A stretch of DNA of 64,000 nt, taken from IMG/VR virus record IMGVR_UViG_2851938318_000001, one strand, 5' to 3'. Both the position numbers and the translations under genes were made by a program. The stretch comes from a virus (Duplodnaviria > Heunggongvirae > Uroviricota > Caudoviricetes). Position 1 is the stretch's first letter. Every line of letters begins with the position of its first letter. The notes beneath the pieces were generated by a model. The model did not search any database and was not told where the DNA came from. It saw only the letters and a program-made list of their open reading frames with translations. Below, piece by piece: positions 30,824 through 49,941 of this stretch.

Positions 30824-30843
30824 TGCGAAGAGAGGTTGTTTAA

Positions 30844-32877
30844 TTACTTAACCTGGTGGCCAGGTTTAGCACCAGCATCCGGGCTTAACAGGAAGATATC
30901 TTTCCCGCCGGGGCCAGCAGCCATCACCATGCCTTCAGAGATACCGAAGCGCATTTTACGTGGTGCCAGGTTAGCCACCATAATGGTGTGACGACCAATC
31001 AGTGCCTGTGGATCTGGATAAGCGGAACGGATGCCTGAGAAGACATTACGCTTTTCACCACCGAGATCCAGCGTCAGGCGAAGCAGTTTGTCAGAACCTT
31101 CTACAAACTCTGCGTTTTCAATCAGCGCCACGCGCAGGTCAACTTTGGCGAAGTCGTCAAAGGTGATAGTTTCCTGAATCGGGTCGTCAGCCAGTGGGCC
31201 AGTTACCGGTGCGGCTGTGGCTTTCACTTCTTCTTTGGATGCTTCCACCAGTGCTTCAACCTGCTTCATATCGATGCGGTTATACAGTGCCTTGAACGGA
31301 TTCACTTTATGGCCCAGCAGCGGTTGCTGGATACCATCCCAGGTCAGTTCTGTATTCAGGAATGCTTCTGCACGTTCAGTCAGTTTCGGCAGTACCGGCT
31401 TCAGGTACGTCATCAGCACGCGGAACAGGTTAATGCCCATAGAGCAAATCGCCTGCAGATCGGCATCGCGTCCTTCCTGCTTCGCCACCACCCACGGAGC
31501 CTGTTCATCGACATAGCGGTTAGCCAGGTCAGCCAATGCCATGATTTCACGGATAGCTTTACCAAATTCGCGGCTTTCCCACGCTTCACCAATCACTTCA
31601 GCGGCATCAGTGAAGGTTTTGTACAACTGCGGGTCAGCCAATTCGCTTGCCAGCACGCCGTCAAAACGCTTGTTGATAAAGCCCGCATTACGAGAGGCCA
31701 GGTTAACCACTTTGTTCACGATATCGGCATTCACGCGCTGAACGAAATCCTCCAGGTTGAGATCGATATCATCAATGCGCGAAGAGAGTTTCGCAGTGTA
31801 GTAGTAACGCAGGCTGTCGGCGTCAAAATGATTCAGCCAGGTGCTGGCTTTAATAAAGGTGCCGCGAGACTTGGACATCTTCGCGCCGTTCACCGTCACA
31901 TAGCCGTGAACAAACAGGTTGGTCGGCTTGCGGAAGTTGCTGCCTTCCAGCATGGCAGGCCAGAACAGGCTGTGGAAGTAAACAATATCTTTACCGATGA
32001 AGTGGTACAGCTCGGCGGTGGAGTCTTTCTTCCAGTATTCATCGAAGCTGGAGGTGTCGCCGCGTTTGTCGCACAGATTCTTGAAGGAACCCATGTAGCC
32101 AATCGGCGCGTCCAGCCAGACGTAGAAATATTTGCCCGGTGCGTTCGGAATTTCAAAACCGAAGTACGGCGCATCGCGGGAGATATCCCACTGTTGCAGA
32201 CCAGATTCAAACCACTCCTGCATTTTGTTTGCCACCTGCTCCTGCAACGCACCGCTGCGGGTCCATGCCTGCAACATTTCGCTGAAAGAAGGCAGATCAA
32301 AGAAGAAGTGTTCGGAATCACGCATTACCGGCGTAGCACCAGAAACTACCGATTTCGGCTCGATCAGTTCAGTAGGGCTGTATGTCGCGCCGCAGACTTC
32401 ACAGTTATCGCCGTATTGATCCGGCGCTTTACATTTCGGGCATGTGCCTTTCACAAAACGGTCCGGCAGGAACATGCCTTTTTCCGGGTCGTACAGCTGA
32501 GAGATGGTGCGGTTTTTAATAAAACCGTTCTCTTTCAGGCGAGTATAGATAAGCTCGGACAACTGACGGTTCTCTTCGCTGTGCGTCGAGTGATAGTTGT
32601 CATAGCTGATGTTAAAGCCTGCAAAATCAGTCTGGTGTTCCTGACTCATTTCGCCAATCATCTGTTCCGGTGTGATACCAAGCTGCTGTGCTTTCAGCAT
32701 GATCGGTGTGCCGTGGGCATCGTCGGCACAGATGAAATTAACCTCGTGGCCGCGCATTCGCTGGTAACGAACCCAGACATCAGCCTGGATGTGCTCCAGC
32801 ATATGGCCGAGGTGGATTGAGCCGTTAGCGTACGGCAGCGCGCACGTCACCAGAATTTTCTTCGCGACTTGGGTCAT
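30844..32877 (-). CDS. metG: methionyl-tRNA synthetase (E. coli chromosomal type)
   Basis: protein from [31 protein letters not shown]... with KMSKS motif, recognised as E. coli MetRS; ORF-track start 33006 is upstream extension. Confidence 0.95.
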
Positions 32878-33034
32878 AGTAGGCATTACTTCTTTGTAGT
32901 GAAAAGGGGCTTGATAGTAACAAAATGGCCTTATGTCTGCCATGTGATAACAGCATTTCTCATAAATGATTAAATGCCGTAGCTGGAGTACACTACAAGG
33001 CGACAATTGCGCAAATTAAAATAAAGGAGACGGG

Positions 33035-34135
33035 ATGAGCGAGTCCAAATCGCCGGATGCCCTGAGAGCAATGGTAGCCGGTACGCTGGCTAATTTTCAG
33101 CACCCAACCCTGAAACACAATCTGACTACGCTTAAAGCGTTACACCATGTTGCGTTGATGGATGACACACTGCATGTCGAACTAATCATGCCTTTCGTGT
33201 GGAATAAGCCTTTTGAAGACCTGAAAGAGCAATGTAGTGGTGATCTGCTCCGTATCACTGGCGCAAAGGCTATTGACTGGAAGCTGTCGTACAACATTGC
33301 CACGCTTAAGCGCGTCAAAAACCAACCAGGCATTAATGGCGTGAAGAACATTATCGCCGTCAGCTCAGGCAAGGGCGGCGTTGGTAAATCCTCCACGGCG
33401 GTAAACCTGGCACTGGCGTTGGCTGCTGAAGGTGCGAAAGTTGGTATTTTGGATGCCGATATCTACGGGCCATCAATTCCAACCATGCTTGGCGCGGAAA
33501 ACCAACGTCCAACCTCACCGGACGGTACTCACATGGCACCGATTATGTCTCATGGACTGGCAACCAATTCAATTGGTTATCTGGTAACTGACGACAATGC
33601 GATGGTGTGGCGTGGTCCGATGGCGAGCAAGGCGTTAATGCAGATGTTGCAGGAAACTCTATGGCCTGATCTGGACTATCTCGTTCTCGATATGCCGCCG
33701 GGTACTGGTGATATTCAGCTGACGCTGGCGCAGAACATTCCTGTAACTGGTGCTGTTGTGGTAACTACGCCGCAAGATATCGCGCTGATCGATGCGAAGA
33801 AAGGCATTGTGATGTTCGAAAAAGTCGAAGTGCCGGTACTGGGTATCGTCGAAAACATGAGTGTGCATATTTGCAGTAACTGCGGTCATCACGAGCCAAT
33901 TTTTGGCACCGGTGGCGCACAGAAGCTGGCCGAGAAATACAACACGCAGTTGTTAGGCCAAATGCCACTTCATATCTCTCTTCGTGAAGATCTGGATAAC
34001 GGAACACCAACCGTTATTAGTCGTCCAGATAGCGAATTTACGGCTATTTATCGTGACCTCGCAGATCGCGTTGCTGCCCAAATGTATTGGCAAGGTGAAG
34101 TAATACCTGGCGAAATCGCATTCCGCGCAGTGTGA
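33035..34135 (+). CDS. apbC: Fe-S cluster carrier ATPase ApbC/Mrp (E. coli chromosomal type)
   Basis: P-loop AVSSGKGGVGKSS and CxxC (CSNCGH); divergent from metG as in the E. coli chromosome. Confidence 0.93.
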   Translation: MSESKSPDALRAMVAGTLANFQHPTLKHNLTTLKALHHVALMDDTLHVELIMPFVWNKPFEDLKEQCSGDLLRITGAKAIDWKLSYNIATLKRVKNQPGINGVKNIIAVSSGKGGVGKSSTAVNLALALAAEGAKVGILDADIYGPSIPTMLGAENQRPTSPDGTHMAPIMSHGLATNSIGYLVTDDNAMVWRGPMASKALMQMLQETLWPDLDYLVLDMPPGTGDIQLTLAQNIPVTGAVVVTTPQDIALIDAKKGIVMFEKVEVPVLGIVENMSVHICSNCGHHEPIFGTGGAQKLAEKYNTQLLGQMPLHISLREDLDNGTPTVISRPDSEFTAIYRDLADRVAAQMYWQGEVIPGEIAFRAV

Positions 34136-34141
34136 TAAAAA

Positions 34142-34160
34142 GGTGGTGCAATGCACCACC
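34142..34160. terminator. hairpin between convergent apbC and humD-like gene
   Basis: ggtggtgcaatgcaccacc perfect stem. Confidence 0.5.
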
Positions 34161-34172
34161 TAAACAGTTCTC

Positions 34173-34562
34173 CTACATCACAGGACAATCATCAAACTCG
34201 CCACTTCTTGCGTCGTTGATAATGTGAGTGATCACACCAAACACGGCATTGCTGCCCGTGCATCCATCATCATCCTTTGGCAATGCTTCCTTCTTACCAG
34301 TTCTTAAATCCTCCAGATGCTGACGTGGATACTTCCGGTATCTTTTTACGCGATATTCCCCATCCAGAGCACATACAAGAAGAGATCCATCAACAGGAGT
34401 GAGTGAGGAATCGACCACCAGCAATGCACCCTGCAATATTCCCTCACGATGATGGCTGTCTGCCGCCCTCATGAAGTAGGTCGCTGAAGGATGTCTAATT
34501 ATCTGCTGATCAAGAGAAATACGGCTCTCAGCATAATCCGCCGCAGGAGAAGGGAAGCCCAT
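34173..34562 (-). CDS. UmuD'-like protein (HumD-like, no UmuC partner in window)
   Basis: starts GFPSPAADY...HPSATYF (UmuD' core); begins at the position of the UmuD cleavage product. Confidence 0.7.
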   Translation of the reverse strand: MGFPSPAADYAESRISLDQQIIRHPSATYFMRAADSHHREGILQGALLVVDSSLTPVDGSLLVCALDGEYRVKRYRKYPRQHLEDLRTGKKEALPKDDDGCTGSNAVFGVITHIINDARSGEFDDCPVM

Positions 34563-34578
34563 AATACTCGCCTCTTAA

Positions 34579-34598
34579 TACTGTATATACATACAGTA
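34579..34598 (-). promoter_or_regulatory. LexA (SOS) box
   Basis: TACTGTATATACATACAGTA, 1 mismatch from consensus CTGT-N8-ACAG box, 17 bp upstream of humD-like ATG. Confidence 0.7.
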
Positions 34599-34897
34599 TA
34601 TGTTGAAGCTATATATTTTTGAACTCTATCTCTTAAAAAAGATGTTAATAAGATGCTAACTATTGAAAGGCATAAATATATACAATTCCAACAAACGTTA
34701 TTTTTAACAAATTTTTTCTCTCTGTTGACTTTTGCGAAAGCCTTGTCTGGCCTAAATTGCGCGGAAGCTACTTTTTCCTTCCTGAGTTATCCACAGAGTT
34801 ATGCACTTGCATGCATAACCTATACACACTATCTTAATTCGCAAGACACTGATGTTGCGGTATTGAAGGTTCATTGGGTTAAAAATAGACATTAAAA

Positions 34898-34926
34898 AGC
34901 CCAGTTGACTAGGCTGGGCTTTTTAA
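34898..34926. terminator. bidirectional rho-independent terminator
   Basis: aaaaagcccagttgactaggctgggcttttt. Confidence 0.6.
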
Positions 34927-35224
34927 AAGGAAACAGAGTTTGCGGCTCTGTTCCTGAGCCATAAGTATCTGGCGACTGAATTAAGATTAACCGAATGTAC
35001 TGGATTCATCAAGAAACGTTGAGTGGTCATACCAGGTAATAATGACCATTTACTAAACATCGTTGTTCTCAAAGAAGATTTAAGTCCAGGTTTTTGGTGA
35101 CTCTAAAACCTTACCTTAACTCGAAATCGTGCCGTAAGTATCTGGCGACTACAGATATTGCAACTGCAAAGGCAAGCCCAAAGGTATTTGCAGCTAGGCG
35201 CGATAAAACTAAGTGAGGCCTGTT

Positions 35225-35308
35225 ATGGTTAACTTACTGTTCAAAATCGTGCCGCCGATGTTCGCGATTATCAAAGCGATCATTGAGTACGTAAACCAGC
35301 GTCCATAA
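35225..35308 (+). CDS. small hydrophobic peptide (27 aa) candidate
   Basis: SD gtgagg then ATG; MVNLLFKIVPPMFAIIKAIIEYVNQRP; hairpin terminator downstream; upstream 16-bp direct repeats. Confidence 0.25.
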   Translation: MVNLLFKIVPPMFAIIKAIIEYVNQRP

Positions 35309-35363
35309 CGCTAGTTGCTACAGGCCCCATCAAGAGCATGGGGCCTCTTTATCGTACTATTGC

Positions 35364-35990: not shown

Positions 35991-36370
35991 TTATCTCTCT
36001 CAGTATGTTGCGATGGCGTAAATTTGACGACATCAAATATTTTGGATGGCATCAACTTTATCCGCGAGCTTAGTTCGGCTCTTCTCTGTAATGCGGTTAA
36101 TAATGTTTTCGTTCTGACGCCTTCGTGTATCCTCATCCCTGGCACAAGAACTACATCGCAGGGGAGATGCTCAGGTGACAAATCATTTTGGGCATCGCTA
36201 ATCAGTCGTGTAATCTCTCTTTCAAGCCGACCGCCTAGCTCTGTTTTAGTGCAATGTTCTGACCAATCGCCAGCCTCAAGCAGCGCGAGAATGCTTAAAA
36301 TATCGTCCAATAGATCAGTGGTATTATCGACTTCCTTCTGAAACTCACCGGCTACTGATTTATGCATCAT
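35987..36370 (-). CDS. hypothetical protein
   Basis: 127 aa ORF, 4-bp overlaps with both neighbours. Confidence 0.4.
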   Translation of the reverse strand: MMHKSVAGEFQKEVDNTTDLLDDILSILALLEAGDWSEHCTKTELGGRLEREITRLISDAQNDLSPEHLPCDVVLVPGMRIHEGVRTKTLLTALQRRAELSSRIKLMPSKIFDVVKFTPSQHTERDK

Positions 36371-37284
36371 TCGTCATCCTCATCCGAGTCATCCTCATCA
36401 CAGGATGAGAGTAGTGGGTTAGTCATTCGCCCTACTTGAGTGGCGTAGCCACGCCGACAGAGATTGCGCAGCACACTGTATATTTCGAACATCTCGGTTC
36501 GTTCATCGCCAACATCAAGCTCAGATGCTATAGCGTGGCATTCAGTCGCGAGAGCCGATATTTTCTGAAATAACTCTGCATTATTCACTGTTCGACTCCT
36601 GCGGCGTTCTGGTAGTGGCATCCAGTGTGTGACATTGCTAATCAGACCATATTCATTAGTTTGAGGATGGTTGCCGTTATCGTCTCCGTATTTAAGACTC
36701 TCCATAAAGCCATAATGCCTATCACCATTAACGCTCACAAAGCCGTAATAAGCTGGTATAACGCCGATCTCACACGTAATCAGCAAAGGAAAACCAGTTC
36801 TCCAATTTAACTCGCCGATTACAGGCATTCGCTCACTACAGCTTATCCAACCATCCTTAATGCAATTATCTTGACTCTGAAGCATAGCGGCACGACAGGC
36901 GTTCCAGCCTCTCACCTCTGCAATAGCGGCAACAGCATCAACCGCGTACATGCTAAGAGGATTAGGCATTGGTTTTTCTTCCGGTACTACTGGCACTGGA
37001 GGGGCGGCGTATACTTCAATTGTCCCATTATCAATAGGCCATTCTCCATCCTTGAGGTAGTCACTTGTGCCGTCAACTTGCTGTTCTGCAATGTGGAATG
37101 CACCTATTGGTTTTGCCTCAAGCGAGGCCAGTGCAATTCGTGCCAGTTTTAGATCTCGTGCAACCATCTCAATAACAACTTTGCAGTCCGCACCTTCTTT
37201 ACTAACACGTCCTTTCAAGTCTTCCAGATAACTAACGCTTTCGCGTGCATGGGAGATTAACTGTTCTTTGGTTAAGGTGGTCAT
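36367..37284 (-). CDS. hypothetical protein with DUF551-like C-terminal region
   Basis: C-terminal segment ...THWMPLPE resembles DUF551 family of lambdoid early-region proteins (from memory). Confidence 0.4.
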   Translation of the reverse strand: MTTLTKEQLISHARESVSYLEDLKGRVSKEGADCKVVIEMVARDLKLARIALASLEAKPIGAFHIAEQQVDGTSDYLKDGEWPIDNGTIEVYAAPPVPVVPEEKPMPNPLSMYAVDAVAAIAEVRGWNACRAAMLQSQDNCIKDGWISCSERMPVIGELNWRTGFPLLITCEIGVIPAYYGFVSVNGDRHYGFMESLKYGDDNGNHPQTNEYGLISNVTHWMPLPERRRSRTVNNAELFQKISALATECHAIASELDVGDERTEMFEIYSVLRNLCRRGYATQVGRMTNPLLSSCDEDDSDEDDE

Positions 37285-48060: not shown

Positions 48061-48625
48061 TTTACACAATTTCAGAGGGTAATTTAAAAAATCCGTACTT
48101 ATTACGTGCCTTAAAGAAGCATTGCATCATTAAGTTTGTGTCATATAAGGCACTATGTGCTTTGGCATGATCGTATATAAAGCCAAGAGAGAAGGCCAAC
48201 TCTTCAAGGCGGGGACGTTTACCGTCTTCTGTGGCCCACAATCCCGATAACATAGTATCTATAACAGGAACTTCTGGCAGTCTTACTCCATACCCTGAAA
48301 ACTCGTGTCGAATAAATGGTATATCAAATGCTTCGCCGTTATGAGCAACCCACACACTACATGCCCCCATATAAGCGCCAATTTCGCTGGCATGATTTGA
48401 CAACAAAGGTTCAGCTGCGAGCTGTTCCAATGAAATGCCATGAACGGCTTGAGCTTTCGGATCTATGTTTCTGCGAGGGTTAAAACGCATCTCCAGACTA
48501 TCAATATGTCTCTGTGTCTCCAGTTCATAGCGGGTAATTGCGATTTCAATAATTTTATGACCAGCAAGGAAATCCAGTCCCGTTGAACCGCCCCGGGTTT
48601 CCTGGAGAGTGTTTTATCTGTGAAC

Positions 48626-49516
48626 TCAGGCTGCCAGATCATCGTTTCCGATGGAAGCATAATAAGCTTTTTCTGCTTCTGCCGGAGGAGTATGGCCCAG
48701 CCTTCCCAGCAATCGTCGATTGTTATACCAGTCCACCCACGTTAGTGTGGCCAGTTCCACTTCTGCACGGTTTTTCCAGCTCTTACGGTGTATTACCTCC
48801 GCTTTGTAAAGACCATTGATGCTCTCAGCCATCGCGTTGTCATACGAGTCGCCTGTACTCCCTGTTGATGCCAGTAATCCGGCTTCTTTTAGTCGCTCCG
48901 TATAGGCCAGTGACACATACTGAGAGCCTTTATCGCTGTGATGGATGGTGCCAGACGGACGACGGGCCCACAACGCCTGCTCCAGCGCATCCAGCACGAA
49001 TGTCGTTTCCATAGACGATGAGACCCGCCACCCCACGATGTATCCGGCAAACACATCAATGATAAACGCCACATAGACGAAGCCCTGCCATGTGCTGACG
49101 TAAGTAAAATCAGCCACCCACAGCTGGTCAGGTCGTTCTGCCACGAACTGACGGTTTACGCGGTCGCCTGCGGCAACGGCTTTCCGGCTGATGGTCGTAC
49201 GGACCTTTTTACCCCGGAGAACACCGGCAAGTCCCATAACCGCCATGAGACGTGCCACTGTACATCTGGCCACCCTGATTCCTTCCCGTAACAACTGACG
49301 CCAGACTTTACGCACACCGTACACCTGATGATTTTCATCGTATACGCGCTGTATCTCTCTCTTCAGCCAGTCGTCGTGCTGCGCACGGGCACTGCGTTTA
49401 TCCGGATGATGTCGCTGTTGCTGACAATGGTAATACGTTGACGGGGCAATATGCAGTTCGCTGCATACCGGTCCGACCCCGTACTGCTCACGCAGCTTAT
49501 CCAGCAGTGGCATCAT
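48626..49516 (-). CDS. IS629-type transposase OrfB (DDE)
   Basis: overlaps orfA in -1 frame; DDE integrase-like sequence. Confidence 0.85.
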
Positions 49517-49839
49517 TTTTTCCAGAGGCGGTCGAACTCCGCCTTCGCAAAATAAGCGGAAGCCTGGCGAAGGATATCGTTACTGCGGCGCAGTTCACGA
49601 TTTTCACGTTCCAGCTCTTTCAGACGCTGACGTTCAGCGCTGGTGAGCCCACCATCACCGCCCCCGGTATCCCGCTCATGCTGGCGAACCCAGACACGCA
49701 GAGTCTCCGGCGTACAGCCAATCTTTGGGGCAATGGAACAAATTGCCGCCCACTGTGAGTCATATTCATCCTGACTTTCCAGAACCATACGAATCGCCCG
49801 CTGACGGACTTCGGGGGAAAAACGAGTATTTTTAGTCAT
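49513..49839 (-). CDS. IS629-type transposase OrfA
   Basis: [31 protein letters not shown]... recognised as IS629/IS3411 OrfA. Confidence 0.9.
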
Positions 49840-49941
49840 CCTGTTTACCTCTTTCTCAGGGAGTTTAGTCTCCAGGATTTCCGGGGCGGTTCACGTAGAC
49901 TCGATATCGATGCCTGCAACAATCGTTGTCATCAGAACTCC

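Follow-up and report, generated by a model that had tools for sequence, protein, structure and literature searches.

The window, by which we mean the whole stretch of 64,000 nucleotides analysed here, is part of an SSU5-like Escherichia coli phage-plasmid and carries a gene that is very probably an orthologue of bacteriophage P1 humD, controlled by LexA and encoding a pre-activated UmuD′ partner for host UmuC. The gene is of an already known kind and is effectively a known member of its family. We describe below the protein, its control region, the missing polymerase partner, the wider family and the surrounding phage-plasmid DNA, and we weigh the alternative readings where the evidence bears on them. 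Coordinates of the features are collected in Table 1.

Table 1. Features at and around humD in the window.
Feature	Position	Strand	Description
Chromosome-derived metG-apbC block	30843..34131	.	nucleotide homology to E. coli chromosome
metG	stop 30844, start 32877	minus	mapped from the pRM9131-1 annotation
apbC	33035-34135	plus	convergent with humD; pRM9131-1 annotation
Intrinsic terminator of humD (predicted)	34131..34161	minus	9-bp GC-rich stem, 3-nt loop (34161-34141), then UUUUAUCACA
humD	34173..34562 (stop codon included)	minus	ATG start, 129 aa; pre-truncated UmuD′-type S24-fold protein
Shine-Dalgarno-like AAGAGG	34571..34576	minus	8 nt 5′ of the humD ATG; read from the sequence
LexA (SOS) box TACTGTATATACATACAGTA	34579-34598	.	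19/20 to TACTG(TA)5CAGTA; predicted operator
σ70-like promoter (predicted)	34595..34623	minus	−35 TTCAAA 34623-34618, 17-nt spacer, −10 TATACT 34600-34595

Results

The window encodes a HumD-family protein that begins at the UmuD cleavage point

The NCBIfam equivalog model for HumD (NF051876, “HumD family translesion DNA polymerase”) recognizes the window protein at 219.8 bits against a cutoff of 120, with protein residues 1-129 lying on profile positions 1-129 of 129. The same protein stays below the cutoffs of the UmuD model (NF007621/PRK10276; 87 vs. 110 bits) and the LexA model (27.2 vs. 110.95 bits), and it belongs to HumD and not to UmuD by these models. It matches Pfam Peptidase_S24 (PF00717; 37.9 bits vs. 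a gathering score of 23.3), which identifies the S24 fold, and PHROG 811 (“UmuD-like”). The S24 domain is the only domain in the 129 residues; an N-terminal DNA-binding domain is absent, and the protein is not a self-cleaving repressor of the LexA/CI type. Amino-acid identity is 100% to a 129-aa protein of phage Cyrano, 91.5% to P1 HumD (AAQ14073.1), 90.7-93% to the proteins of P7, D6, SJ46 and RCS47, and 68-73% to N15 gp26 and phiKO2 gp23 (64-73% when HK140 and HK639 are included); from Gly25 on, identity to E. coli UmuD is 44%. The original prediction of a UmuD′ homologue of the HumD type, resembling P1 humD, is thus borne out by profile search and by alignment with UmuD and HumD, and the fold described next agrees with it.

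A search of solved structures returned UmuD′ (1UMU, E=6.7e-23) and UmuD (8GMT chain B) as the best matches. An AlphaFold (AF2) model built from a 34-sequence alignment (mean pLDDT 81.6) retrieved, by Foldseek, UmuD′ (1UMU and 1AY9) and UmuD (8GMT) at the top, with TM scores to UmuD′ of 0.76-0.78 normalised to the target, followed by the C-terminal domains of LexA and lambda CI. In the alignments, residue G2 of the window protein pairs with the residue that opens 1UMU and, in 8GMT chain B, with Gly25 of full-length UmuD; the open reading frame therefore starts, as had been proposed, at the equivalent of the UmuD cleavage site, with Met followed by the Gly25 equivalent in the manner of the HumD family, and the UmuD-type N-terminal arm with its Cys/Ala-Gly cleavage site is absent. 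The same M-G-F/M-P start is found in 9 of 9 solo homologues aligned. A longer N-terminus is impossible, because reading the sequence upstream reveals an in-frame stop five codons 5′ of the humD ATG and no start codon in between.

The coding DNA is 84% identical between the window and P1, with dS of ~1.0, dN of 0.042 and dN/dS of 0.04, which indicates strong purifying selection on humD. These values bear on the reading that humD now does nothing, being a decaying remnant or a passenger, or else that its product regulates the lytic switch as a self-cleaving S24 protein. Its location in a variable accessory region (the whole 30-39 kb region of the window is missing from SSU5 itself) would suit a remnant, as would the BTP1-type phages, in which the tblastn match falls in two pieces where gene annotation is absent and looks like a disrupted copy. 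Against this stand the low dN/dS, the intact reading frame, the ~640 PLSDB plasmids that match HumD at ≥90% identity over essentially its full length (~180 of them at ≥95%) and the lack of both a DNA-binding domain and a cleavage-site arm in the protein. We regard this reading as extremely improbable.

A near-consensus LexA box lies in front of humD and recurs at related loci

The box upstream of humD is the sole match with at most three mismatches to the LexA 20-mer consensus in 64 kb on both strands, and 100 shuffles gave 0 matches; the strength of the site was judged through these mismatch counts and shuffles. The core CTGT-N8-ACAG also occurs once in the window, but as 0.82 occurrences are expected by chance the core alone is not significant, and the weight of the box therefore lies on the full 20-mer and on its conservation. 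The original prediction of a near-consensus LexA box upstream of the UmuD′ homologue holds, except that the spacing between 20-mer and ATG is 16 nt rather than 17.

The predicted promoter has 9 of 12 consensus matches in a consensus scan and is weak when taken alone, the region having 2 such sites vs. 3.2 expected. Its −10 element overlaps the LexA box, an arrangement that has the sequence features of an operator of the E. coli-type LexA regulon. P1, PhiR41_1 and HK639 share the GAGG of the Shine-Dalgarno-like element at the aligned position. At the other end of the gene, the minimum-free-energy structure of the minus strand across 34125-34185 (61 nt) contains the humD hairpin (−20.1 kcal/mol, z=−2.5); the terminator has a short U-tract of 4 U, and its tail runs over the stop codon of apbC, which lies on the opposite strand.

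We compared 11 solo humD-type loci: those of the window, P1, PhiR41_1, phiKO2, N15, HK639, BTP1, Aeromonas phage pAEv1818, Hafnia phage yong1 and Pantoea phage G19, and the HK140 operon. An upstream LexA box is present at all 11; at 10 of them a TACTGT-N8-ACAGT box lies just 5′ of the start codon at the equivalent position (with one core mismatch in pAEv1818), and phiKO2 has a perfect box ~25 nt farther upstream than at the other loci. The DNA around the boxes does not align, and the proteins are down to ~41% identical. A P1-like 5′ region had been expected for the window gene, and this was ruled out: upstream of the box, the humD 5′ region gave no alignment to P1, P7 or PhiR41_1. The comparison with PhiR41_1 is of particular use, as its humD coding sequence is 98% identical to that of the window and its 5′ region is P1-type with its own, different LexA box. 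The breakpoint of recombination between the two lies in the first few codons (MGYP vs. MGFP; L002:7150-7260 vs. window 34557-34640), and both promoter cassettes contain a LexA box.

It could be argued that the match is not a working operator and that humD is constitutive or controlled by the phage-plasmid. The chance expectation of 0.82 cores per window and the weak promoter prediction would allow this, yet no 19/20 match to the full 20-mer is expected by chance, the box recurs at 11 of 11 related loci with unrelated flanks and proteins down to ~41% identity, and PhiR41_1 has a box of its own in front of a 98%-identical coding sequence despite its different 5′ region. A non-operator is, on this evidence, highly unlikely. 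Control of humD by LexA is most likely, judging from the sequence, the conservation of the box at related loci and the LexA binding sites annotated upstream in the P1, P7 and phiKO2 records; LexA-controlled, damage-inducible expression has been stated for P1 humD (PMC9603915).

The phage-plasmid encodes no detectable UmuC partner

A Pfam search found no Y-family polymerase domain among the 10 largest open reading frames of the window. The tblastn query, 423 aa long, was the Y-family polymerase of an IncI plasmid operon in which it accompanies a DinI-like gene and umuD; we take it to be of the ImpB type, and its record states only “Y-family DNA polymerase”. The best match in the window had E=1.4, and nothing at E≤1 was found in bases 1-99,999 of the near-identical plasmid pRM9131-1. 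The annotation of pRM9131-1 contains no UmuC or Y-family polymerase gene across its full 117 kb, the last 17 kb being judged by annotation only. The proposed lack of a UmuC partner is therefore supported by the domain search, by tblastn on window and plasmid and by the plasmid annotation, and humD is found on an element without a cognate umuC, as is characteristic of the HumD family.

Solo and N-extended relatives differ in the catalytic dyad and the C-terminal tail

Searching 1.84 billion cluster representatives yielded 3,416 relatives at E≤0.001, of which the best 150 were classified; P0004 and P0034 were left out as apparently corrupted (systematic F/L/V/Y/C replacements). Among the best 150, 30 sequences of at least 110 aa start with M-[G/A/S]-F-P-S-P-A at or near residue 1, which marks them as born truncated, and 43 have an N-terminal arm before a Cys/Ala-Gly site. 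In the aligned N-extended sequences, G-x-S-M is present in 9/11 and the Lys in 10/11; the aligned solo sequences retain the Lys in 5/23 and S-M in 0/23. Loss of the dyad in the solo class and its retention in the N-extended class fit relaxed selection on self-cleavage, and, with no cleavage required, the Ser-Lys dyad is apparently free of constraint in these sequences. The window protein has both S36 and K73, the equivalents of the UmuD dyad Ser and Lys, in a motif that reads ADSH where UmuD has GDSM.

A C-terminal tail of the form E-F/W-D-D/E-x-P-x-x-COOH occurs in 9 of the 30 solo sequences by pattern (~12-13 by eye) and in none of the 43 N-extended ones. The two residues after the Pro are hydrophobic in the conserved version of the tail. 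In the window protein the tail is GEFDDCPVM (residues 121-129; mean pLDDT ~52, i.e. low confidence), and it loosely resembles the C-terminal tip of SSB, DFDDDIPF; we found no mention of GEFDDCPV in the literature searched. That the acidic tail is a docking motif for SSB-interacting proteins or RecA is a long shot. If true, it would give phage HumD a role in recruitment or competition that UmuD′ lacks, and this role might explain why phages keep a solo HumD copy.

The tail and the dyad also bear on a second reading of the protein, that of a modulator or decoy that titrates UmuC, heterodimerises with UmuD or binds RecA filaments through the acidic tail, such that SOS mutagenesis or recombination of the host would be damped or re-timed to the benefit of the induced phage-plasmid. 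DinI and PsiB are models for this kind of action, and the solo humD-type genes of phiKO2 and HK140 lie beside a divergent dinI that shares the LexA box region; part of the family has the conserved acidic extension GEFDDCPVM, which is absent from UmuD and ImpA; and most solo sequences have lost the catalytic dyad, which shows that the family has drifted from UmuD. However, the core fold of HumD is that of UmuD′, and P1 HumD, 91.5% identical, is described in PMC7092418 as a functional activated UmuD′ analogue. We consider the modulator reading, both as to how the protein would act and as to whom it would benefit, improbable and favour the P1-humD orthologue acting with host UmuC.

The spacer upstream of humD

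The 801-bp spacer upstream of humD (34563-35363) is unannotated. It contains a 140-bp stretch (34697-34835, plus strand) that is 82% identical to the region upstream of E. coli nrdA (ypaB), whose counterpart is found in nearly all E. coli chromosomes. The stretch keeps a perfect DnaA box, TTATCCACA (34787-34795), with TTATGCACT adjacent, and the apparent nrdA −35/−10 elements (TTGCAT, 17 nt, TATCTT, ending at ~34834); what we presume to be the NrdR-box stretch of the nrdA region is missing from the copy. TTATCCACA occurs 4 times in the window vs. 0.55 expected. The transcript predicted from the nrdA-like promoter is ~85 nt long, lies on the plus strand at ~34841-34925, and runs to a terminator-like hairpin at 34898-34925.

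Rfam gave two sub-threshold matches in the 800-bp spacer, to AgrB (27.6 bits vs. 40; E=0.015-0.036) and to RNAI (23.1 bits vs. 47), both rejected and both largely driven by a terminator hairpin. The AgrB-like match corresponds to a two-hairpin element at 34891-34972 (minus strand) that ends in a bidirectional-looking terminator; AgrB is the antisense RNA of the LexA-regulated dinQ toxin locus, and the match is probably a chance one driven by the terminator. The element at 34891-34972 would stop transcription arriving from the upstream 208-aa gene and so would isolate humD as a unit of its own.

For a homologue of P1 lxr divergent from the LexA box, the sole candidate was an 80-aa open reading frame (34653-34895, plus strand), which was rejected as it bears no similarity to Lxr. 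It matches phrog_28987 (unknown function) over its full length; its similarity to P1-like plasmids ends inside the frame at 34811, RefSeq annotates nothing there, and it is probably not a real gene.

The phage-plasmid and its metG-apbC block

Bases 1-46,000 of the window are 100% identical to E. coli plasmid pRM9131-1 (NZ_CP028430.1, IncFIB, non-mobilizable), and the rest differs from it mainly by IS insertions. An IS3-family element (IS1203-like) occupies window positions 48582-49893, where pRM9131-1 has no insertion, and contains an ALIL frameshift pseudoknot (Rfam RF01497, 121.5 bits) at 49442-49558; an IS91 segment of pRM9131-1 is missing from the window. Because of these IS1203-like and IS91 differences, the window is a close relative of pRM9131-1 and not that exact record. 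Its other relatives include the Escherichia phages Cyrano (pLF82), CMS-2020a and PhiR41_1, and it is an SSU5-like E. coli phage-plasmid. Cyrano makes virions, and genotoxic stress, with ciprofloxacin as the agent used, induces the phage-plasmid (PMC9928086).

Two further observations concern the same element. A second LexA-like box, TACTGTTTACTTATACAGTG, lies outside the window (L011:6893-6912, i.e. ~105892-105911 of the pRM9131-1 record), ~29 bp 5′ of the site-specific integrase gene of the phage-plasmid. A 305-aa DUF551-domain open reading frame is uninterrupted at window positions 36367-37284 (minus strand). For the same sequence in pRM9131-1, RefSeq instead records two features, a short hypothetical protein and a DUF551 pseudogene marked “partial”, a split that may be an annotation artefact.

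The original prediction placed humD directly against a host apbC segment, at the right junction of a block of host DNA. The adjacency stands: 37 nt, containing the humD terminator hairpin (34141-34161), separate the apbC stop from the humD stop codon. The block itself is not freshly captured host DNA. Among the E. coli genomes listed, its nucleotide identity to the chromosomal metG-apbC pair is 88.3-89.1% (92.9% in one), a divergence of ~11%, and it differs by 16% from a Salmonella-derived record. Chromosomal homology ends at both ends of the reading frames, on the right at the apbC stop codon (34133-34135), and the copy is trimmed exactly to the two reading frames and their shared intergenic region. 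A 4-kb metG-apbC query is matched over at least 80% of its length in 5,424 of 5,426 complete E. coli genomes, and the phage-plasmid version, at ≥95% identity, turns up in a further 211 records of the searched set of complete E. coli genomes. By sequence divergence and distribution, metG-apbC is an old capture fixed in the phage-plasmid lineage and not recent host DNA; with a block that is so diverged and fixed in the lineage, the humD/apbC junction says little on any recent event.

[quoted passage not shown] In a preprint that surveys phage-plasmid genomes on a large scale, metG, apbC, umuD and humD all go unmentioned.

Discussion

Comparison with known systems places the window gene closest to humD of P1-type elements. 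The humD genes of P1, P7, D6, SJ46 and RCS47, like that of the window, encode 129 aa with an MGFPSPAADY start and a GEFDDCPV C-terminus, and this group shares with it a LexA box ~16-20 nt upstream and the absence of umuC. The settings differ: the host element is SSU5-like for the window and P1-like for P1 humD; in the window, humD and apbC are convergent and humD ends at a terminator of its own, whereas humD of P1 and P7 is followed by phd-doc; and a divergent gene precedes humD in P1 (lxr) and in P7 (upf94.2). N15 gp26, phiKO2 gp23 and the UmuD-like proteins of HK140 and HK639 are, as in the window, solo and pre-truncated, with an upstream LexA box and the same tail, but they have Thr in place of the catalytic Ser that the window protein retains, and their genes follow those for tail fibres, lie close to genes for partition or integrase and in some cases have a divergent dinI as neighbour.

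The differences from UmuD systems are larger. E. coli UmuD/UmuD′, the accessory subunit of Pol V (1UMU, 1AY9, 8GMT), has the same fold, but the window protein lacks its 24-residue N-terminal arm and cleavage site and has an extra 11-residue acidic C-terminal tail (residues 119-129), and the window gene, unlike E. coli umuD, is not in an operon with umuC. As arm and cleavage site are absent, HumD would dispense with a RecA-dependent activation step. The umuD-type operon of IncI plasmids (impCAB type) shares with the window locus an S24-fold accessory subunit, a mobile element and an upstream CTGT-N8-ACAG box; its subunit, unlike window HumD, is full length (146 aa) and keeps GESM (the SM motif) and the Lys, and its gene is followed by a Y-family polymerase gene of its own, which window humD lacks.

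Our results suggest the following sequence of events. In an undamaged cell, host LexA would sit on the SOS box over the −10 element and the likely transcription start and keep humD off; DNA damage would activate RecA, LexA would cleave itself, and humD would be derepressed as a single-gene transcript ending at the hairpin beside apbC. HumD would be synthesised as Met plus the UmuD Gly25 equivalent, the form into which UmuD has first to be cleaved with the aid of RecA, and, being made already in the UmuD′ form, would need no processing. It would then dimerise and join chromosomally encoded host UmuC with RecA-ATP to form a Pol V-type translesion polymerase, which would allow damaged phage-plasmid or host DNA to be replicated sooner or more easily but with mutations as the price. 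The steps of LexA repression, HumD dimerisation and partnership with UmuC and RecA, which we draw by analogy from work on P1 and from general knowledge of the SOS response, are most likely. P1 HumD is reportedly poorly expressed, with good complementation only from a high-copy plasmid. The literature presents it as a working UmuD′ analogue that is made in its activated form (PMC7092418; also the McLenigan 1999 title given in PMC4713147), and only for P1 HumD are substitution for UmuD′ in vivo, binding to UmuC and RecA filaments, and dimerisation known from published work (PMC7092418).

A weaker speculation concerns the short-U terminator of humD: an SOS transcript reading through it would cover apbC in antisense and, farther on, enter metG in the sense direction. 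If true, such read-through would link DNA damage to a phage-plasmid gene associated with antimicrobial survival.

The finding carries little weight as a discovery: a curated NCBI model exists, the P1 orthologue is in the literature, and LexA sites are annotated in P1, P7 and phiKO2. Its value lies in annotation. The PLSDB copies listed bear the labels “S24 family peptidase” or “DNA repair protein”, and the RefSeq label “S24 family peptidase” in ~180 near-identical plasmids can be replaced by the name humD; we suggest the annotation “humD, SOS-inducible UmuD′ analogue dependent on host UmuC” as the one that the sequence most plausibly supports. SSU5-like phage-plasmids, including relatives of pLF82/Cyrano, would in this way be credited with a P1-type helper of SOS mutagenesis adjoining plasmid-borne metG-apbC, which bears on how fluoroquinolone exposure might affect these phage-plasmids.
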